The notes below the pieces were generated by a model. It searched no databases, was not told the DNA's origin, and worked only from the letters and a program-made list of their open reading frames with translations. Below are positions 9,337 through 31,449 of a stretch of DNA of 64,000 bases, in pieces (the first letter of the stretch is position 1; each line of letters opens with the position of its first letter). The DNA is from Candidatus Cloacimonadota bacterium (GTDB lineage: Bacteria; Cloacimonadota; Cloacimonadia; G963667145): contig OY762940.1 of the NCBI GenBank assembly GCA_963667255.1, positions 1,079,503 to 1,143,502 on the forward strand, given 5' to 3'. The translations under genes were made by a program, and so were the position numbers.

Positions 9337-11580
9337 ATGATAAATTTTAGATTTGAAGTTTCGGGCTTCTCTTTTTGTTCCAATAAAACTTATGTTTTTT
9401 CCGATGAATTTTGTTTGAAGCGAAGTCTTTATAAATTGCAGACTTCGGGGAAGATACTCGAAGGAGCTTTCATTACGCAAAGCCAATTTTTCGATAGCTT
9501 GAAGAACTCCTTGGATTTCCCCTTAATATCTCCTGAATTGAGGGAGTTAGTTTTTTGGCAAGCCTGTGCTAACGAAGATAGTTTTGAGGTCGTTTCTGAA
9601 AAAGCAAAACGGTTTTTTTCTTTTTGGAGAGAGGTTAACGGCTTGGTGTTTGAGCAAAACGAGATAGAAAAAATTTTGATTTCTAATCAGCTAAAGCGAT
9701 GGAACAGGCAATGCGGATACAGAGAGAAATATTTAGAGAAAATTAGGTCTATGGGGTTTGCAGACGATGAGGTTGAAAGCGTTGAATACAGTGCTGAGTC
9801 GCTTTATGAAACCTCGATTGTTTTTTATGATTGCTTGAATTTTACACCTAAACAAGCGAATTGGCTGAAAAATTCTGAAGAGAGAATTGAGTTCAGTTTC
9901 TCTTTTCCCGAGGCAATTTACGATAAAGAAAGATTGTGTGTTCGTGATTTTGCTGTGAAACAATTGGAGCACTTTTCTTTTCCTCGGGTCGAGATTAAGC
10001 AATACGAAGACAAATTTTTCATGGATGCTGCTTTGGTGAATGATGGAGTTAAGAGTGCTTATGGCAACTATTCTGAGCCTGCATTTAATGTTTTTGGCAG
10101 AGATTTTTTCTTAAAAAATAGGAAGAGTTTCCGCTTTTTGTCGGCTCTCAAGGGACTTATAACGGGCATCAAAAATAATAGAATCCCTTTGGAGAAGTTG
10201 TTGTCTTTGGTCTTGGTTCATTCGTGGAAAGGCGAAAGTAGTGATGCCGTTGTTATTGATAAAAACTTGGTTCTAAATCTAATAGACAGGCAGTATAAGT
10301 TTTTGTTTGGTAGTGAAATAAAGACGGAATTTCTTGCTTTTATCAAGGAGTTGAGCTCGAATTTTGATTTCTTCTTTTCATATTTGAAAAAATTGGACGA
10401 TAGCCCTATTTACCTTGAGAAAATCGATGAGTTGCTTGAGTTGACCAAAACAATTAATTTCAGTCCATTACAGGCTTTGGATTACTTCTTGTCCAAAAAT
10501 GCAAAAGAGTTGGTAGCGACTAACAAAAATAAGGTTAATATCAAACCTTTGCATATCAAGGTTTCGTTGGGAGATTTTACCGCCTATAATGCGACCGAGG
10601 GCTTCTTAAATGGCTTCTGCAAAGACGGAGATTTTTTTAGTGAAGAGCAGAAGAAAAATCTGGGACTTCTTTCCAGCGAGCAAGCTAAGAATATTCGCAA
10701 ATTTTGTTTTTTATCCCTGCTTCAATCTCACAAGAATGTTACTATTTATACTTACGAAGAGCCGATTAACAGTATTCAGATAGCTTCTGTTTTAGAGGAG
10801 TTGAGGGCTTCCGATTTGGATGTTGAGTTTACCAAATATTCTGATTTGGATTTGAAAAGGTTGCTTTCTTTGATATTGCCGAGTGAAAATAGTTATGATT
10901 TTGGGGAAGAAACCGAGTTTGTTTTCCCGTATTCTGGAGAGAAGTTGGACAATTTTTCTTATAGTGAAGCCAAGAGTTTGTTGGAAAATGCGGAGAGCTA
11001 TTACCTTAATTATGTGCTGAAGATTAGAGAGTTTAATTTGCCGTCGAGGAGTATCGAAAGCAATTTGCTGGGGGAGATTGCCCACAAGATTTTCCAGGTG
11101 TATCTTCAAAAAGGGAAGCCGGAAAATATTTCCGAAATTGCTGAAAAGGTTTTGTCCAGCTATTCTGACAAATTGCCTGACAATTATCACAAGCTATTTT
11201 TTGAAAAATATACAGTTGAGACGATAATGGAAAGTTTGCAATATTTTGTTTCTGAAGTTGAACAGGCAGTCGGCGAGTGCGAAAAAAATCTCGAAAAATA
11301 TTTTCCCGATTGTGGAATAACTTTACGGGGAAGATTGGATTATTTGACTGAAAACGCTTTGTTTGACTTCAAAACTGGCAGTAAAAATAATTTAGATCCT
11401 GCACAATTGGAGTTTTACTCTTTGCTCGCCGAAAATCTGCCAGCGTGTTTCTATCTTGTTTTTGAAAAAGAGGTAGTGCCATTTTGGGAGAAAAGAAATT
11501 ACCAGCCTATTTTATCTGCTTTAAAAGAGAAGATTAGAAGAGTGAAAACGGAAGGCTTTAAGGGAAATTACGACGAGTAG
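9337..11580 (+). CDS. PD-(D/E)XK nuclease superfamily protein (AddB/Cas4-like C-terminal nuclease domain, no helicase motifs seen)
   Basis: C-terminal GRLDYLTENALFDFKTG ... QLEFYSL resembles RecB-family nuclease motifs II/III and QxxxY; N-terminal start uncertain. Confidence 0.4.
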   Translation: MINFRFEVSGFSFCSNKTYVFSDEFCLKRSLYKLQTSGKILEGAFITQSQFFDSLKNSLDFPLISPELRELVFWQACANEDSFEVVSEKAKRFFSFWREVNGLVFEQNEIEKILISNQLKRWNRQCGYREKYLEKIRSMGFADDEVESVEYSAESLYETSIVFYDCLNFTPKQANWLKNSEERIEFSFSFPEAIYDKERLCVRDFAVKQLEHFSFPRVEIKQYEDKFFMDAALVNDGVKSAYGNYSEPAFNVFGRDFFLKNRKSFRFLSALKGLITGIKNNRIPLEKLLSLVLVHSWKGESSDAVVIDKNLVLNLIDRQYKFLFGSEIKTEFLAFIKELSSNFDFFFSYLKKLDDSPIYLEKIDELLELTKTINFSPLQALDYFLSKNAKELVATNKNKVNIKPLHIKVSLGDFTAYNATEGFLNGFCKDGDFFSEEQKKNLGLLSSEQAKNIRKFCFLSLLQSHKNVTIYTYEEPINSIQIASVLEELRASDLDVEFTKYSDLDLKRLLSLILPSENSYDFGEETEFVFPYSGEKLDNFSYSEAKSLLENAESYYLNYVLKIREFNLPSRSIESNLLGEIAHKIFQVYLQKGKPENISEIAEKVLSSYSDKLPDNYHKLFFEKYTVETIMESLQYFVSEVEQAVGECEKNLEKYFPDCGITLRGRLDYLTENALFDFKTGSKNNLDPAQLEFYSLLAENLPACFYLVFEKEVVPFWEKRNYQPILSALKEKIRRVKTEGFKGNYDE

Positions 11581-22708: not shown

Positions 22709-22716
22709 TAATTTAA
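22709..22716. repeat. Target-site duplication (left copy) TAATTTAA
   Basis: Identical 8-mer directly abuts the outer ends of both inverted repeats. Confidence 0.65.
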
Positions 22717-22733
22717 GGTTCAAGATAACTTGA
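22717..22733. repeat. IS left terminal inverted repeat GGTTCAAGATAACTTGA
   Basis: Perfect 17-bp reverse complement of 23437-23453. Confidence 0.8.
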
Positions 22734-22763
22734 CAAGTGAATTATACTAGTTAAGTTGTTGAT

Positions 22764-23450
22764 ATGCCAATAAGAAACAAGTACGTAAAAAACTCCAAAA
22801 TTTCTGAAGAAAAATTTAGAGAAATAATTAAGTTTTTTTCTTTGGATATTGAGGCTAGTAAAATAGCACTTTTGACCAAAATTAGTAGAAAAACAGTTAA
22901 CAATTATTTACTTAAAATTAGAGAGAGAATTGCTGAATTTTGTTGTGAGGATTCTCATCTTTCTGGAATAATTGAAGTTGATGAATCTTACTTTGGAGCG
23001 AAAAGAGTTAAGGGGAAACGAGGACGAGGTGCTGGAGGTAAAATTAAAGTTTTCTGATTGCTCAAAAGAGGCGACAAAGTTTACACTCAAATGGTTGATA
23101 ATTGTAGCAGAAAGACATTACAAGCGATAATAAAAGAAAGGATAGAAAAGGGTAGTGAAATTCACTCTGATGGATGGAAAGCTTATAATGGATTGGTTGA
23201 TTTAGGATACCAAAAACACTATAGAGTTGACCATTCGAGCAATGAATTTGCCAATAAAAATGGACATATTAATGGGATTGAGAACTTTTGGGGAATAGCA
23301 AAATTGAGACTAACAAAATTTAAAGGAATTCATAAAAATATGTTCTATTTACACTTAAAAGAATGTGAATTTAGGTTTAATCATAGAAAGCAAAATTTAT
23401 ATAAAATTTTGCTAAAAATGTTCCGAAATAATCCGCTCAAGTTATCTTGA
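22764..23450 (+). pseudogene. IS1595-family (ISXO2-like) DDE transposase interrupted by a single in-frame TGA (23055-23057) at a conserved Gly position
   Basis: Translations ...IIEVDESYFGAKRVKGKRGRGAGGKIKVF*LLKRGDKVYTQ...SEIHSDGWKAYNGL...HYRVDHS...NGIENFWG... match the family pattern ETYFGGKRKGKRGRGA-GK-VFG-LER-G-V; stop replaces the G of VFG. Confidence 0.7.
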
Positions 23451-23453
23451 ACC
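23437..23453. repeat. IS right terminal inverted repeat
   Basis: Reverse complement equals GGTTCAAGATAACTTGA. Confidence 0.8.
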
Positions 23454-23461
23454 TAATTTAA
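23454..23461. repeat. Target-site duplication (right copy) TAATTTAA
   Basis: Identical to 22709-22716. Confidence 0.65.
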
Positions 23462-23537: not shown

Positions 23538-25781
23538 ATGAGTATAGAACAAAGTATAATTTCTAGGCGAGAAAGTGATAAGAAAGTTGAAACCCAACAA
23601 TGGTTTCAAAAACTTATACAAACAAGCGAATATGTTGGTGATTTGTATTCTATCAACTATGAAACCGCAAGAGTAATAATTCATGATTTCTATAGAGAGA
23701 AAGTCGGAGGAATTCCAAGCTTAAGTTTTTTAATTGCCTCAAGAGTTGACCCCAATAATTCAGAAATTGATTTTAAAACAGAGGATGCATCATTTATTCT
23801 TTTAAGAGTAATGGATGCTATAGCGCTTCCGCAGGATAGAGAGGCAGAAAGAATTAGAGTTGAAACAGCACAAAGAATAAGTGGTGAAACTGAAAAAAAT
23901 TGGGATGAAGCAGGTTCAATGGATTTAAGAACAAAAAATCTGTTAAGTTTTGCTGGTGTTCAGTGCAGAATAATTGGAACATTTTATCTCGAAGAAAATG
24001 GAGAAAATGGAGAAGCACCACTTAATTTAAAATTTGGTAGTGATATTTCAAATTATTATCCAAACAGAGGATTAAAAGTTTATAAACCAAACGGGAAGGC
24101 TCTTGAGTTAATAGTAAATTATTCTGATCCTTCAAATATTCAAGCACACATTGAAAAATATGGAAACACAGAAAATGTAAAATTGGGTTTTGTAAGATAT
24201 GCTTCAACAAATAGAAAATATCAACAAATTAGTGATGTCCCTGTTTATATTTATCCAGCAGACCTTCTATCTCAAAAATCTGCCTTGTTTGGAATGACAA
24301 GGACAGGAAAATCCAATACGACTAAAATAATTGCAAAATCTGTTTTTGAATTACGAAATGCACAACGGTCTGGAGAAAATCCATTAAGAATTGGACAAAT
24401 AATTTTTGATCCCAACGGTGAATATGCCAATGAAAATGTTCAAGATAGGGACGGTAGCGGTAATCCAAATGCATTAAAAAATATTTGGCGAAAAGACGAA
24501 ACTTTAAGAAATATTGCTGATAAGCTGAAACAACAATATATTCAAGAAACAGAAATCGAAGAAAAGAAAAGATTATGGAATGAAATAAAATCATTGGTTG
24601 AAACAGAGGTGGTTACATATGGTATTTTACCACATCCACTAGACCCATTTCGTAGATTAATGAAAATAAACTTTTATGAAGAAGACAATCTTCAAATAGG
24701 TAAAGAAATCATTGATTTTAAAATTGCGGAGCAGTCAGCTCAGTATATTAAAAATTTTCGACAAGTTGTTTTCAAAAGACCAGTAGAAGATGAATACGAG
24801 AATGAGGTTGAATTTAATGGACAATTAAGGCGTTTTGAGAGAAGAGTTCTTGTTTATTGTGCATTGCTAAATAAAGCAGGTTTTAATCCACCGTTTCGAA
24901 CAGTTAATATTTCAAGAATGTTTAATGCTGACCTAAGAAATGCTATGATTAACTATTCTGAAAAAAAATTTACACGTAAACAAGGATTAATAAATGCAGC
25001 GGGTCAAACTCTGTCACAAACAAATGTAACCTGGGATAGTCTTGCACCTGCTTTTGAAGGTTTGTTCCATTTCCTTTCAACTGCTGATTACAATACATTC
25101 AACCAAGATTACATAAATAATCATCGTGATGATGAGAATGAGGATGCTACAGGAGAAGGTTGGGCTGAAGCAGAACTTGAAAGTTTGTTGGAAATGTTTA
25201 ATTATTCAAAAGCTATTAATCTAATTGGTGGTGTAAATACACAACATACAACATCAATAAGAACAGATTACGCCGAAGATATTTATAATGATTTAACTGA
25301 AGGGAAACTTGTTATTATTGACCAATCAAGTGGTGAGCCAGAACTAAACAAGTCTTCAGCAAATAGAATAATGTGGCATATTTTTAAAGCTAACCAAAGT
25401 GCATTTCGAGAGGGTGAGAAATTAATTCCCGAAATATTGGTTTATGTGGAGGAAGCTCATAATATATTACCAGCTGGTAATGATTTAGATTTAACCGATG
25501 TTTGGGTTAGGACAGCAAAGGAAGGTTCAAAATATAGAATTGGGATGGTTTACGCAACCCAAGAAGTAAGTAGTATTCAAAGAAATATTTTAAAAAATAC
25601 AGCGAATTGGTTTATAAGCCATTTAAACAATACTGATGAAACCAAAGAACTATGCAAGTACTATGATTTTGAAGACTTTGAGCCATCAATAAGGCGAGCA
25701 CAGGATAAGGGTTTTTTAAGAGTTAAAACTTTAAGCAATCTGTTTGTAATTCCAGTTCAGGTTGACAAATTTGAAGTCTAA
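23538..25781 (+). CDS. HerA/DUF87-like (FtsK-HerA superfamily) ATPase with about 250-aa N-terminal domain of unknown type
   Basis: Walker A GMTRTGKS (about aa 252), Walker B of hhhh-EEAH type ILVYVEEAH (about aa 637), downstream ATQ motif RIGMVYATQEV typical of HerA-family ATPases. Confidence 0.6.
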   Translation: MSIEQSIISRRESDKKVETQQWFQKLIQTSEYVGDLYSINYETARVIIHDFYREKVGGIPSLSFLIASRVDPNNSEIDFKTEDASFILLRVMDAIALPQDREAERIRVETAQRISGETEKNWDEAGSMDLRTKNLLSFAGVQCRIIGTFYLEENGENGEAPLNLKFGSDISNYYPNRGLKVYKPNGKALELIVNYSDPSNIQAHIEKYGNTENVKLGFVRYASTNRKYQQISDVPVYIYPADLLSQKSALFGMTRTGKSNTTKIIAKSVFELRNAQRSGENPLRIGQIIFDPNGEYANENVQDRDGSGNPNALKNIWRKDETLRNIADKLKQQYIQETEIEEKKRLWNEIKSLVETEVVTYGILPHPLDPFRRLMKINFYEEDNLQIGKEIIDFKIAEQSAQYIKNFRQVVFKRPVEDEYENEVEFNGQLRRFERRVLVYCALLNKAGFNPPFRTVNISRMFNADLRNAMINYSEKKFTRKQGLINAAGQTLSQTNVTWDSLAPAFEGLFHFLSTADYNTFNQDYINNHRDDENEDATGEGWAEAELESLLEMFNYSKAINLIGGVNTQHTTSIRTDYAEDIYNDLTEGKLVIIDQSSGEPELNKSSANRIMWHIFKANQSAFREGEKLIPEILVYVEEAHNILPAGNDLDLTDVWVRTAKEGSKYRIGMVYATQEVSSIQRNILKNTANWFISHLNNTDETKELCKYYDFEDFEPSIRRAQDKGFLRVKTLSNLFVIPVQVDKFEV

Positions 25782-25792
25782 ATTGAGTTAAT

Positions 25793-27160
25793 ATGGGGTT
25801 TGAAGGAGAATTTGCCAGTTATGAGCCATTAAGGCGAATGCTTGATAGTGATAAAGTTAAATCACTACAAGACAGACTGAAAATACGAAAACAAGAAGAA
25901 GAAACAGATACTTTCACTGGCTCAATTGTTAAAAAGTCAGACTTGACTGAAAGCTCAATACAACCTGATTTAGTTTTAGCAATTGATGGAAGCAATTTGG
26001 CGGCTAAAGCTGAAAGTGGATTTCCGGGTGCTGAATTTGGATATATTACAATAGCTTCTGTTTTAATAGATTTAAAACTTATTGATGATTTAGAAAAGAA
26101 ACAGTTTATTGACCCCAAAAAGGTTAGAGAAACAGAAAAAGCATCGACAATAGAAAGTGTCTTCCCCGGTTGCAATGTAATTTTGGACACAGAAAAAAAT
26201 GCAAATGCTTCACTTCGAAGAGCATTATTTGAAGAATTAAAATGTAACACAATATTTGCTAACGGTGGAGAAACATTATTGGATACTTATGAATACCTCT
26301 TCAGAATAAAGAGAGAGCATTTCTCTGAAAGCCGTCTTCCAAGAAGCCCTATTGATGGTATTGATAAAGAAATGACTTATGGATACGATGAATATCCTTG
26401 TCCTCATTCAGGAGAGCCATTATATTCAACTGATGCTTTGCGTTTACATGAATTAATGAATCCTGGTGGTAGTAATGGTGAAATGTTTGGGCAAATAATG
26501 TCAACTCTTGAAAAGGTATGGTTGGTTCATATACTCAGAGCATTTGAACAAAAAGAATGGTTATCAACCCTTCGGAGAGTAGCATTTATTATGGATGGAC
26601 CATTAGCTGTATTTAGTACTTCATCTTGGTTGACAAAAGTTATTAATTATGAATTAAATAGGCTAAATGAATTGCAGAAAGCAGTTAACGGTCAGGATTT
26701 ATTAATTATCGGTATTGAAAAATCAGGAACATTCGTAAATCATTTCGAAGAAATTGATACGACTAAAGATGGAGTTACAGATAAATTTCCAAAACAATCA
26801 GCATTACTGCTTGACGATGGCTATATAAAAAGAAATATTATTTTTTCTGAAAGCATAAAACCATATGGTCAAGACACTTATTTTGGAAGAAAAATATTTT
26901 ATAAAACTGCTTCTGGACAAAAAATAGTTCCAGTAATTGCATGTTATAATGACCAACAAAGAAATACCTCAACAGCAAATCCAAATCAATTTTCAAGGCT
27001 TTCAGATGTTATGAATTTGCTTGATAAATTGGTTTCAAGTAGATATCCAAATTCCGTTTCTCCTTTAGTATCTGCTCATGCAGAAGCAGCAATTCCTTTA
27101 AATTTAGGTAAACGGATATTTGAGGATATTGCAAGAGAAATAAGAGAAAAATCAAATTGA
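25793..27160 (+). CDS. NurA-like nuclease
   Basis: N-terminal LVLAIDGS motif, central IIGIEKSG motif, C-terminal His (SAHAEAA) consistent with NurA D-E-D-H layout; 11-nt gap to upstream gene. Confidence 0.5.
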   Translation: MGFEGEFASYEPLRRMLDSDKVKSLQDRLKIRKQEEETDTFTGSIVKKSDLTESSIQPDLVLAIDGSNLAAKAESGFPGAEFGYITIASVLIDLKLIDDLEKKQFIDPKKVRETEKASTIESVFPGCNVILDTEKNANASLRRALFEELKCNTIFANGGETLLDTYEYLFRIKREHFSESRLPRSPIDGIDKEMTYGYDEYPCPHSGEPLYSTDALRLHELMNPGGSNGEMFGQIMSTLEKVWLVHILRAFEQKEWLSTLRRVAFIMDGPLAVFSTSSWLTKVINYELNRLNELQKAVNGQDLLIIGIEKSGTFVNHFEEIDTTKDGVTDKFPKQSALLLDDGYIKRNIIFSESIKPYGQDTYFGRKIFYKTASGQKIVPVIACYNDQQRNTSTANPNQFSRLSDVMNLLDKLVSSRYPNSVSPLVSAHAEAAIPLNLGKRIFEDIAREIREKSN

Positions 27161-28287
27161 TGATTACAAAGGAAAAGATATTAAAAGGTTATAAAACCGC
27201 GGAGGCTCGATGGGCAAGATTTGGTCCATATTATGCCATGTTTCCTTTGGATTTTGCATTTGAGGTTGTTGAGAAATACTCAAAAAAAGGTGATTACATA
27301 CTTGACCCTTTTGCAGGTAGATGTAGCAGTATCTATGCTGGTGGTGTGCTTGGTCGAGTTAGCTTAGGTATTGAAATTAATCCCGTAGGCTGGCTCTTTG
27401 GGAAAGTAAAATTAGAACCTGCAGATAAGGAAGATGTAATTGACCGTTTACTTGAAATTTATGGTAAGCGAAATTATTATAGATGCTCAACTAAAAAATT
27501 ACCAGAATTTTATAGGATATGTTATAGCGATGAAGTCCTAAAATTCCTATTAGCAGCGAGAGCAAATCTTGACTGGATAAATAATGACATTGATGCAACT
27601 CTTATGTCAATTCTTTTGGTTTACTTACATGGTAAATTAGGAGAATGTTTGTCAAATCAAATGAGAATGACAAAGTCAATGGGAATGAACTATTCTGTTG
27701 AATGGTGGAAAAAAAATGGACTAACAAAACCACCTGAAATTAATCCCTTTGAATTCATTCTTAAAAAGATTGAATGGAGATATGAAAAAGGGACACCAAA
27801 TGTTACTGAAAGTGCAGTTGTATTTGGTGATAGTTCTAATCAATTAATCAACATTTCAGAGAGAGCCATTCAAAATGATATTAAATTTTCGCTTCTGTTT
27901 ACATCTCCACCATATTATTCAATCACAGATTACCATGCAGACCAGTGGCTGAGATTATGGCTGTTAGGAGGTTCAGAAAATCCGCAATCATTAAAAGACA
28001 AACATAAAGGAAGATTTGTAAACAAAGTTGATTACTACAATTTACTTGATACTGTATTTGAACTTAGTTCACGAATGATGGACGAAAGGAGTACAATTTA
28101 TGTCAGGACAGACAAGCGTGAATTTACTTTTAATTCTACTTTAGAGATTTTAAACAAGCATTTTCCAAATTATAAAACAAAGATTATTGAAAAGCCTTTA
28201 ACTAAAGACACCAAGACTCAGACAAAATTATTTGGTGACAAATCAATGAAGCCTGGAGAAGTTGATATAATATTACAAATAGAATAA
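27157..28287 (+). CDS. DNA methyltransferase (N6-adenine or N4-cytosine type)
   Basis: AdoMet motif I ILDPFAGRCSS followed by GRVSLGIEINP; catalytic motif IV FTSPPYY about 200 aa downstream; start overlaps upstream stop (ATGA). Confidence 0.6.
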   Translation: MMITKEKILKGYKTAEARWARFGPYYAMFPLDFAFEVVEKYSKKGDYILDPFAGRCSSIYAGGVLGRVSLGIEINPVGWLFGKVKLEPADKEDVIDRLLEIYGKRNYYRCSTKKLPEFYRICYSDEVLKFLLAARANLDWINNDIDATLMSILLVYLHGKLGECLSNQMRMTKSMGMNYSVEWWKKNGLTKPPEINPFEFILKKIEWRYEKGTPNVTESAVVFGDSSNQLINISERAIQNDIKFSLLFTSPPYYSITDYHADQWLRLWLLGGSENPQSLKDKHKGRFVNKVDYYNLLDTVFELSSRMMDERSTIYVRTDKREFTFNSTLEILNKHFPNYKTKIIEKPLTKDTKTQTKLFGDKSMKPGEVDIILQIE

Positions 28288-29134: not shown

Positions 29135-30340
29135 ATGGAAGGTAAAGTTTTAGTTGCACAGGGAGGAGGTCCTACCGCTGTGATTAATCAGTCGCTGGTA
29201 GGAGTGGTTTTGGAGTCTCGCAAATTCCCTCAAGTTACCAGAGTGTATGGCTCTCTTAATGGTTTGGAAGGCATAGTAAACGAGAATTTTTTGGATTTGA
29301 CTCAAGAAACTACTCACAATTTGGAACAAGTTGCCTTGACGCCTTCTTCCGCATTATTGTCCACCAGAATCAAACCTGATGCAGCTTATTGTAAGAAGAT
29401 TTTTGCAGTGCTAAAAAAATATAATATTCGCTATTTCTTCTATATCGGAGGCAACGATTCGTCTGATACCGTGAGAATAGTGAAAGAAGAGGCTGTGAAA
29501 GATGGTTACGATTTCAGGGCAATTCATATTCCCAAGACTATCGACAACGATTTGGTCGGCAATGATCATTCTCCAGGTTACGGCTCTGCTGCCCGCTTTG
29601 TTGCTCAGGCTTTTATGGGAGTCAATTTGGACAACAAGGCTTTGCCAGGAGTTTACATAGGCGTAATAATGGGTCGTCATGCGGGCTGGCTCACCGCTGC
29701 CTCCAGTTTGGCTCAAAAGTATCCCGATGATGGTCCGCACTTGATATATTTGCCGGAGAGAGCCTTTGATAAGCAAAAGTTTATTGGGGATATAAAGGCT
29801 GTTTATGCGAAATTCGGTCGCTGTGTGGTGGCTGTTTCCGAGGGCATCGTTGATAAGGATGGCATAGAGATTATTACCAAGTTGATGACAAATCAGGAGT
29901 GTGATGCACACGGCAATGTGCAGTTGTCGGGAACAGGAGCTTTGGGCGATTTGTTGGCTGAGTATGTTAGGAAAAATACGGATATTTCCCGAGTGAGAGC
30001 GGACACTTTCGGCTATCTGCAAAGGTCTTTTTATGGATGTGTTTCCGATGTTGACCAGAGTGAAGCCAGAGAAATTGCCGAGAGAGCTGTGCAATTTGCC
30101 ATTTGGCACAAAGAGGATGGCTCTATGAGTATTCAGAGAACAGGGTTTTATTCTGTGGATTACAAGCTAATTCCTATCGAGGAAGTTGCTGGCAAGACAA
30201 GAAAAGTCCCAGATTATTATATAAACGAAAAAGGGAATAATGTTACCGAAGAGCTGAAATACTATTTGCGACCTCTTGTCGGTTCAGGGTTTCAACTACC
30301 TAATCGTTTGAGAGCTCCGAGAGTGGAAAAAATTTTATGA
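29135..30340 (+). CDS. Phosphofructokinase family protein, probably PPi-dependent (Pfp-like)
   Basis: PFK fold motifs [25 protein letters not shown]; GGNDS in place of GGDGS (Asp at the position that discriminates PPi from ATP enzymes). Confidence 0.65.
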   Translation: MEGKVLVAQGGGPTAVINQSLVGVVLESRKFPQVTRVYGSLNGLEGIVNENFLDLTQETTHNLEQVALTPSSALLSTRIKPDAAYCKKIFAVLKKYNIRYFFYIGGNDSSDTVRIVKEEAVKDGYDFRAIHIPKTIDNDLVGNDHSPGYGSAARFVAQAFMGVNLDNKALPGVYIGVIMGRHAGWLTAASSLAQKYPDDGPHLIYLPERAFDKQKFIGDIKAVYAKFGRCVVAVSEGIVDKDGIEIITKLMTNQECDAHGNVQLSGTGALGDLLAEYVRKNTDISRVRADTFGYLQRSFYGCVSDVDQSEAREIAERAVQFAIWHKEDGSMSIQRTGFYSVDYKLIPIEEVAGKTRKVPDYYINEKGNNVTEELKYYLRPLVGSGFQLPNRLRAPRVEKIL

Positions 30341-31449
30341 GGCAAACCATGAAAAAAAAATGTTTGGTTGTAACAGGTGGCGGTGACTGCCCGGGTTTGA
30401 ATGCGGTTATCAGAGCGATAGTAAAGCGTGCCGATAGTGAGCCAGACTGGGAAATCTGGGGTAGCATGGATGCGTATAATGGTGTTTTGCAACAGCCTTG
30501 GCGGCTTATCAGATTGGACAAGAAAAAGGTTTCCGGTATTCATGTGCAGGGTGGCACTATTTTGGGAACTACCAACAAAGGTGGTCCTTTCGGATTTCCT
30601 GTGAAAAATTCCGACGGAGAGATTGTTTTGGAAGATAGGTCAGATTTGATGATTAGAGAGCTGAAAGAGGCTGGATTTGAGGCAGTTATCAGTATTGGCG
30701 GTGACGGCTCACAAACTATAAGCCAAAAGCTTTTTGAAAAAGGCTTGAATATGGTTGGTGTGCCGAAGACTATCGACAACGATTTGTCTTGCACCGACTA
30801 CACTTTTGGGTTCTCCACCGCTGTAGATGTGGCGACAGATGCGATAGACAAATTGGTAACGACCGCTGCGTCTCATCATCGTGTTTTGATTTTGGAAGTT
30901 ATGGGCAGATATGCTGGTTGGATTGCTTTGCACAGTTCGTTGGCAGCCGGAGCGGAAATCTGTTTAATTCCCGAGATACCTTACGATTTGGAGATTGTGA
31001 AGAATAAAATCAAAGAGCGGACAGAGAGGAAAGGGTTCTTGATTTTGGTAGTTGCCGAGGGTGCGAAGCCCAAAGATGGCGACATTTTCAGCAAAAAAAG
31101 CGAAGAGGTTGGGCATGAACAAAATGTTTTGGGTGGAATAGGTTTGCAATTGGAAAAATTGTTTAGCTCTGACCCCACAATAACAGCGGATGTTCGCACC
31201 TCTGTGCTTGGGCACTTGCAACGCGGAGGCAGACCGAGTGCTTTTGACCGCAATCTTGCCACACAATTTGGCGTGAAAGCGTTTGAGATGGTGCTGAATA
31301 AAGAGTTTGGCAAAATGGTGGTGGTCAATCACAAGAAAATGGAGTCCGTGAGCCTGAAAGAAGCAATCTCAACTTACAATTTGGTGGATAAAAACTCCGA
31401 TATGATTAAGACCGCTAGAGGTGTGGGGATTTGCTTCGGAGACGAATAA
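30337..31449 (+). CDS. pfkA: ATP-dependent 6-phosphofructokinase
   Basis: [35 protein letters not shown] motifs. Confidence 0.8.

Follow-up and report, generated by a model that had tools for sequence, protein, structure and literature searches.

A HerA-family ATPase encoded with NurA and a DNA methyltransferase in a putative TdpABC-like defence cassette of a Candidatus Cloacimonadota bacterium

Results

A three-gene operon of herA, nurA and a methylase gene

Within a 64,000-nt stretch of a Candidatus Cloacimonadota bacterium genome (contig OY762940.1, positions 1,079,503 to 1,143,502; hereafter the window, in whose numbering all coordinates are given), the open reading frame (ORF) at 23538-25781 on the + strand, herA, encodes a HerA-family ATPase of 747 amino acids (aa) and is the first of three tightly coupled genes that together occupy about 4.75 kb (23538-28287). 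By analogy with known systems, herA probably encodes the motor of a restriction-modification-like, methylation-coupled defence cassette that would resemble TdpABC. A preliminary description of this gene dealt with the architecture of the ATPase and left its downstream neighbours unlinked to it; it is these two immediately adjacent genes that define the function of HerA, and the HerA-NurA-methylase operon, beyond the ATPase architecture, is the main result presented here.

The second gene, nurA (25793-27160, + strand), begins 11 nt past the herA stop codon and encodes a NurA-family nuclease of 455 aa (Pfam NurA, 1.7e-31, residues 60-434). Its stop codon shares 1 nt (TGATG) with the start of the third gene (27160-28287, + strand), which encodes a DNA methyltransferase of 375 aa counted from its ATG (Pfam N6_N4_Mtase, 8.7e-11).

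Conservation and spread of the trio

Relatives were sought in 185,579 species genomes, one genome per species. At least 547 of them hold a HerA relative, and the locus figures reported below refer to the best 80 of these. In 73 of the 80 loci all three genes are complete and share one orientation, 72 of them with the same gene order and one (L067) with the methylase upstream. The remaining seven (L028, L034, L047, L061, L062, L065 and L071) are contig-end cuts or partial matches and none shows the absence of a gene. Usual intergenic gaps within the trio range from -11 to +14 nt. One locus, in a Prevotellaceae metagenome-assembled genome (MAG), has an insertion between herA and nurA, a 281-aa gene (L028:10103-10948) that resembles, by eye, a GIY-YIG nuclease (GIYFLFGE...VYIGETDD).

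HerA identities at these 80 loci lie between 54 and 82% across more than 20 phyla, archaea included. Bacteroidota, Ignavibacteria, Caldisericales, candidate-phyla-radiation lineages, Nitrospirae, Chloroflexi, Bacillota, Proteobacteria, Cyanobacteria and Planctomycetes are all represented, along with two archaeal MAGs, one of Methanoperedenaceae and one Asgard. The cassette is widely and horizontally spread. Its flanking genes are heterogeneous, members of defence or mobile-element families being frequent among them (PIN_8, Hypoth_Ymh, ResIII, Schlafen AlbA_2, HigB, resolvases, transposases), and in Pontibacter the cassette sits inside an integrase/resolvase island that splits a gene of the Mg-chelatase family.

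Among more distant HerAs, 31-33% identical over their full length, the association recurs independently. On a Halorarius plasmid, a NurA homologue (hhalign E 2e-47) and then an N6_N4 methylase come after a HerA of 31% identity. In a Vibrio prophage, HerA and a NurA homologue (E 1e-38) adjoin an integrase, with an unrelated D12-class methylase beside them. On plasmid pANSO36C of Nostoc cf. commune (L083:9367-10425), a small helix-turn-helix regulator, a HerA (33% identity), a NurA and a gene with an AbiTii domain (2e-42) follow one another in that order, with no methylase there.

Some copies bear an additional gene directly upstream of herA. In nine loci (L005-L009, L050, L056, L058 and L060; for example L005:6843-7964) this is a co-oriented gene for a PIN-like nuclease of 338-373 aa (PIN_8, PF18476; E down to 4e-70), a subclade in which it makes a fourth cassette gene. 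Another co-oriented gene takes this place in L039, L041 and L042, and that of L041 encodes a Hypoth_Ymh domain; such domains were matched three times among upstream ORFs. The window cassette has neither a PIN_8 nor a Hypoth_Ymh gene upstream.

HerA motifs and Walker spacing

A database search returned 3947 relatives of the window HerA, the best 120 of them at 66-92% identity, and 23538-25781 is a real, conserved gene. Family members measure 689 to 754 aa and are publicly annotated as 'DUF87 domain-containing protein'. Pfam recognises residues 232-303 alone (DUF87, 2.4e-12), and relaxed scans gave zero matches for residues 1-235 and 304-576 even at E<=10. Sequence and profile searches against the PDB likewise aligned only the two Walker regions. 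Another window ORF of 747 aa (9337-11580) is not a HerA paralogue (BLASTP E 1.2), and its equal length is coincidental.

Motif positions were taken from the translation, from residue-level alignments to solved HerAs and from a profile of the 120 relatives, all of which were concordant. Walker A is GMTRTGKS, residues 252-259 (24291-24314, + strand), placed by the family profile and by alignment to TdpA, Sir2-HerA and Thermococcus kodakarensis HerA, and it is invariant across the 120 relatives. Walker B is ILVYVEEAH, residues 633-641 (25434-25460, + strand), matching the LVVLEEAH and LLEEAH of TdpA and Sir2-HerA; among the same relatives E638, E639, A640 and H641 are invariant. After it, YATQE (residues 672-676) aligns with the TQ motif of other HerAs. 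Both motifs thus fall where the preliminary description had put them (near residues 252 and 637), and its assignment of the protein to the HerA family is borne out by the alignments to solved HerAs, the family profile and the fold search described below.

The distance from K258 to E638 is 380 residues. In the same alignments the corresponding lysine-to-glutamate distance is 274 in TdpA (K199-E473), 294 in Escherichia coli Sir2-HerA (K183-E477) and 249 in T. kodakarensis HerA (K191-E440), so that the window protein exceeds the three solved HerAs by 85-130 residues. The large spacing noticed earlier (about 385 residues) is therefore confirmed. A further excess lies at the N-terminus, where about 230 residues precede the first core strand as compared with about 150-175 in solved HerAs (55-80 longer), and the window HerA exceeds every solved HerA in size. 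The extra length is real, but it is not constant within the family: besides the length range given above, residues 320-360 are an indel that about one in three of 82 family members carries.

Predicted structure of HerA

An AlphaFold2 monomer model was built from the 120 relatives (mean predicted local distance difference test score, pLDDT, 77.4; predicted template modelling score, pTM, 0.75). Compared with the PDB by Foldseek, the model matched HerA proteins and nothing else, and a RecA-like core is therefore present, with the profile placing the Walker motifs at the positions read from the sequence. The top match was TdpA of the TdpAB complex (E 1e-14), followed by the HerAs of T. kodakarensis and Sulfolobus solfataricus, Sir2-HerA, DUF4297-HerA and Deinococcus HerA.

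Canonical HerA has a HAS domain at its N-terminus and, joined to the RecA-like domain via a flexible linker, a four-helix-bundle (HB) domain, and in solved HerA-NurA complexes HAS binds the NurA dimer whereas the HB domains form the DNA entrance and shift upon DNA binding (PMC12977600). The Walker gaps of 249-294 residues in solved HerAs place the HB domain between the Walker motifs. In the model of the window protein, residues 1-228 (23538-24221, + strand) form a long helix (2-26) and then a beta-rich domain of about eight strands with inserted helices, which we propose to be an enlarged HAS-type domain that would dock NurA. Between the Walker motifs the model shows an all-helical region (helices 313-569), its most confident part (pLDDT 87-94 over residues 311-530), and this helical insert lies at the HB-domain position. 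The architecture had been called unusual at the outset; what holds of this is that the N-terminal and helical parts are larger, while the plan itself, with the HAS assignment proposed here, is that of a normal HerA in enlarged form and not a new one.

Near the C-terminus, residues 691-727 (25608-25718) are among the most conserved of the family (93% column identity), yet were modelled with pLDDT <50. Such a combination would fit a brace that becomes ordered only against a neighbouring hexamer subunit.

The Walker A-B insert is exchanged between cassettes

Region-wise identity, nucleotide comparison and the model together delimit a variable helical insert at HerA residues ~304-576 (24447-25265, + strand). 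Conservation across the 82 family members is high over residues 21-300 and 581-747, with 301-580 variable. The contrast is best seen against the cassette at locus L010, whose HerA is 96% identical to that of the window over residues 21-300 and 89% over 581-747, but 41% over 301-580, while its NurA and methylase are 94% and 91-95% identical, respectively. Insert breakpoints are sharp, lying after NGEYANENVQD (~residue 303) and before TDYA-DIYNDL (~residue 576). At the nucleotide level the two cassettes are 83-95% identical, falling to 40-66% only across 24430-25330; identity is 48% upstream of herA and tapers to 74% at the methylase end. Loci L011 and L043 present the converse situation, with inserts 87% identical, N-terminal domains 74%, NurAs 45% and the methylase middle region 49%, and the identity of their alignment climbs sharply from about residue 226.

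Correlations of pairwise identities, taken over all pairs, agree with these examples. The insert follows every other region poorly (Spearman 0.08-0.33), whereas the HerA N-terminal domain and NurA are strongly correlated (0.84), as are the methylase segments with one another (0.83-0.87). At a 55% identity threshold there are at least 19 insert types, shuffled relative to NurA clades. Among 1.84 billion representative proteins the insert was found only in this HerA family and in the same position. The oversized stretch of HerA is a folded, family-specific module exchanged by recombination between otherwise near-identical copies. The evidence for recombination is made up of the specific sequence pairs and the region-wise correlations; a histogram of sharp identity transitions along HerA proved uninformative and was not used, with transitions in 3276 of 3321 pairs, as invariant motifs adjoin variable stretches.

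The N-terminal domain/NurA co-variation and the independence of the insert match the roles seen in solved complexes, HAS binding to NurA and HB at the DNA entrance. The suggestion that the extra parts of HerA may be sensor or partner-docking modules holds on these comparisons. The preliminary interpretation as a whole is partly supported, in that it overstated the architecture as unusual and missed the operon.

NurA and the methylase

Six acidic or histidine residues of NurA (D65, D214, E309, H317, D322 and E431) are invariant in 76 sequences. A sequence search of the PDB with this protein gave zero matches, and its link to TdpB and NurA structures comes from the fold search alone, made with a moderately confident model built on a shallow alignment of database matches (pLDDT 70.9). 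In the PDB, the fold comes closest to chain G of 8wfd, a TdpAB complex (E 1.5e-6); as HerA had matched chains A and C-F of this entry, we infer that chain G is TdpB. Further fold matches are the NurAs of Pyrococcus furiosus, S. solfataricus and Deinococcus, and TM1739. In PADLOC 2023 there is no model matching the window NurA, and NurAs of the family are publicly annotated as 'DNA double-strand break repair nuclease NurA'.

Two distant NurA homologues (L084 and L085) have two cysteine pairs (CxxC or Cx4C...CxxC), likely a zinc ribbon, just before the conserved STDALRLHE motif. In the family of the window NurA (residues ~183-220, 26340-26450) a single cysteine of those pairs, C203, is invariant, and the metal site appears degenerate for this reason.

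The methylase matches the PADLOC type II methyltransferase model (4e-17, residues 27-285) and aligns to the modification methylase 2zie, TSPPY included. Motif I, DPFAG, is found at residues 49-53 (27304-27318) and motif IV, SPPY, at residues 249-252 (27904-27915), and both are conserved in 75 sequences. Motif I precedes motif IV, a permuted order relative to the beta-class enzymes that were matched. SPPY is commonest in N4-cytosine methylases, and m4C would be the modified base predicted from it.

The locus in the window

Between modC and the cassette lies an IS1595-family insertion sequence (IS) element of 739 bp (22716-23454) with 18-bp perfect terminal inverted repeats (22716-22733 and 23437-23454). 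An in-frame TGA (23055-23057) breaks its transposase frame into two ORFs, 22764-23057 and 23058-23450. Upstream past the IS element are modABC and moeA and downstream of the cassette is a ThiF/MoeB-like gene, from which it follows that the IS element and the cassette interrupt a molybdenum-cofactor cluster. GC content of the cassette is 0.30-0.35 as compared with up to 0.47 in the flanks.

Direct or inverted repeats flanking the cassette were not found, the 18-bp IS ends being the sole clear repeats. Promoter and terminator scans returned numbers at chance (30 vs 27.6 expected and 4 vs 3.5, respectively), and no regulatory sites are claimed. Among the annotated genes of the window, none beside the cassette is mre11 or rad50, and no Dnd or TdpC-type gene occurs within the cassette or its immediate flanks. 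A PADLOC match to 'mad8' was set aside as generic P-loop similarity, given that the ABC transporter ATPase ModC of the window matches the same model. Just past the ThiF-like gene that borders the cassette are two tandem phosphofructokinase-family genes (29135-30340 and 30337-31449) with a 4-nt overlap.

Discussion

Comparison with known systems

TdpABC is a phosphorothioate-dependent defence system of thermophiles with solved TdpAB structures (8wet, 8wfd; An et al., Nat Chem Biol 2025, as cited in PMC12914056 and PMC12345140); according to PMC12914056, tdpABC is a three-gene cluster of which tdpC alone makes the phosphorothioate modification. The cassette is built in the same way, with three clustered genes for a HerA-type ATPase, a nuclease of the NurA fold and an enzyme that modifies DNA. 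By sequence (2e-14), by profile (4e-16) and by fold, the window HerA finds its best PDB match in TdpA, and 8wfd chain G is the best fold match of the window NurA; from these top matches, both window proteins have their nearest solved relatives in TdpAB. Differences are also clear. Identity to TdpA is no more than 15-20%, only 495 of the 747 residues of the window HerA superpose on TdpA and about 250 do not, and mesophilic lineages carry the family widely, so that it is not limited to thermophiles. The third gene encodes an N6/N4-type methyltransferase with SPPY and not the sulfur-inserting TdpC, which makes the cassette a Tdp analogue and not a Tdp system proper. A precedent is reported from DndD/DndE-type systems, where methylases take the place of phosphorothioation modules around a conserved core (PMC10853773). 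The 'HerA/FtsK capture' systems described by the Aravind group, DndFGH among them, have other partner proteins and no NurA (0 mentions in PMC10853773 and PMC12839542).

The HerA-NurA pairs solved from S. solfataricus (4d2i, 2ygk), T. kodakarensis (9x1l/9x1m) and Deinococcus radiodurans (7f6d, 7wrx) belong to the same protein families. The cassette differs from them in having no mre11/rad50 linkage, in its attached methylase and in its horizontal spread. Its proteins are larger too: the N-terminal region of HerA is enlarged, the domain at the HB position has about 270 residues and is swapped, as opposed to about 100 for the four-helix bundle of the T. kodakarensis protein, and NurA reaches 455 aa, with Foldseek E about 5e-4 to these structures.

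With Sir2-HerA (Nezha) and DUF4297-HerA the cassette shares the pairing of a HerA-family ATPase with an effector in a mobile and, for the cassette, putatively anti-phage operon, and the ATPases match in sequence and fold. In the cassette, NurA takes the place of Sir2 or DUF4297 as effector and a methylase is added. Neither effector adjoins the window herA, whose neighbours are the IS1595 fragment upstream and NurA downstream, and the PADLOC/NCBIfam models for these systems (HerA_antiphage) score the window HerA at about 27-32 bits, against cut-offs of 800-850. Types I and III restriction-modification systems also combine a methyltransferase, an ATP-driven DNA motor and a nuclease in one operon. 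Their motor is a superfamily 2 (SF2) helicase, whereas that of the cassette would, by analogy, be a ring-forming HerA/FtsK-type ATPase; the cassette nuclease has the RNase H-like NurA fold and not PD-(D/E)xK, and there is no separate specificity subunit. The cassette contains no restriction endonuclease of a known type (PD-(D/E)xK, HNH) and no SF2 Res/HsdR subunit, the partners of the methylase being HerA and NurA only. Diversifying specificity is typical of classical restriction-modification systems, and the cassette methylase is unlike that. A literature search returned no paper describing a HerA-NurA-methylase system, although absence from that search is no proof that such a system is undescribed.

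A proposed mechanism and the points that weigh against it

We propose that the products assemble as in related machines. HerA would form a hexameric ring, by analogy, and a NurA dimer would cap the ring face formed by the HerA N-terminal domains. Powered by ATP hydrolysis, the ring would then feed double-stranded DNA to the active sites of NurA, resulting in processive degradation. The protective role would fall to the methylase, which may mark host DNA so that loading, translocation or cutting is blocked, and only unmarked, invading DNA would be destroyed, giving the cassette its presumed anti-phage activity. The enlarged insert at the HB position would probably act as a gate choosing which DNA is admitted, or else be a surface attacked by phage inhibitors.

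Several observations speak against such a restriction cassette. How a ring translocase that mainly contacts DNA phosphates would sense a base methyl group is not obvious. An et al., in Nat Chem Biol in 2025, reportedly found that backbone sulfur stalls TdpA, and a stalling of that kind cannot carry over directly to a methyl group on a base. The methylase lacks a variable target-recognition region, its middle tracking its ends (Spearman 0.86-0.87), and between the HerA insert and the methylase there is no co-variation (0.08-0.11). The insert was also considered as a reader of the methyl mark and, for lack of this co-variation, was judged unlikely to be one. Similarity to TdpA and TdpB is remote (14-20% identity, TM-scores of 0.35-0.63 and high root-mean-square deviation). 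The immediate neighbours of the cassette in the window are housekeeping genes and not a defence island, and the defence role is argued from context alone, because PADLOC 2023 has no model for this NurA and the literature search returned no paper on the trio.

Alternative explanations

The exchange of the insert could also be understood if the cassette acted by abortive infection, with the HerA insert sensing a phage protein or DNA structure and unleashing NurA on all DNA of the cell while the methylase serves an accessory purpose, e.g. addiction or regulation. Only the insert is swapped and has diversified on its own into its many types, as sensor surfaces, or surfaces that inhibitors target, typically do. 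Sir2-HerA and DUF4297-HerA are described as defending without a modification enzyme (PMC11291478, PMC11472057), and the Nostoc plasmid relative has its AbiTii-domain gene in place of the methylase. Against this, a methylase joins HerA and NurA in every family locus of sufficient length, and a non-homologous one stands beside the distant relative in the Vibrio prophage; a methylase that is constant in the family and replaced by an unrelated one in Vibrio argues that methylation as such is needed, and we consider the abortive mode unlikely. Another alternative is a mainly selfish addiction module, in which cells losing the cassette, and with it the methylase, are killed by the stable nuclease complex, so that the unit persists and spreads regardless of any anti-phage benefit. 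Post-segregational killing is an established behaviour of type II restriction-modification systems, and the cassette forms a discrete block of some 4.75 kb whose homology ends sharply, with a cross-phylum spread and with IS elements, integrases and resolvases next to it. Most examined copies are chromosomal, however, and addiction is compatible with a defence role rather than exclusive of it; as the explanation in its own right, we hold it to be distinctly improbable.

Housekeeping repair of double-strand breaks, with the cassette as an end-resection machine like archaeal and Deinococcus HerA-NurA, has in its favour that the protein families are the same, that HerA and NurA of those organisms are among the fold matches, and that the NCBI name of the nuclease implies such a role. 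Against it, matches are patchy (at least 547 among the 185,579 species genomes), identity across phyla is high, the methylase link is obligatory and some copies are carried by plasmids, a prophage or integrative islands; this cross-phylum mosaic, together with the plasmid and prophage copies, argues against vertical inheritance. Neither mre11 nor rad50 stands beside the cassette in the window, and domain swapping would be unexpected of a repair enzyme. An end-resection role is now doubted even for the T. kodakarensis pair by those who studied it (PMC12977600). We therefore see very little room for a repair function. Some copies of the cassette do lie within integrative elements, and ICETh1 of Thermus combines TdtA, a HerA/FtsK-type ATPase, with a NurA-like nuclease (PMC5365140, PMC7767461); a module for DNA processing or transfer in a mobile element, on the model of this HerA-like/NurA-like pair, is nonetheless the least probable explanation of all those weighed here, and hardly to be expected.

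Implications

Returning to the restriction-modification-like, methylation-coupled cassette that we favour, a bolder version of it can be put forward tentatively, and we lean towards doubting it: an undescribed and very widespread class of modification-dependent immunity in which a processive HerA-NurA shredder is held off the host genome by one conserved methylase, and in which an exchangeable gate at the HB position, not a recognition domain of the methylase, sets the target range or the resistance to inhibitors. If the favoured reading is right, thousands of genes now named 'DUF87 domain-containing protein' or 'DNA double-strand break repair nuclease NurA' would represent restriction-like immunity, in at least 547 species and more than 20 phyla. 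A motor-nuclease of TdpAB type would then be governable by ordinary DNA methylation as well as by phosphorothioation, and modification modules would be interchangeable around the same effector.

The cassette also bears on the open question of what archaeal HerA-NurA does. If the bolder version holds, the close homologues in archaea would support the recent suggestion that HerA-NurA are, or started as, antiviral nucleases and not repair enzymes. With a naturally modular, swappable domain, the cassette would offer a tractable model for how a ring translocase may tell marked from unmarked DNA.

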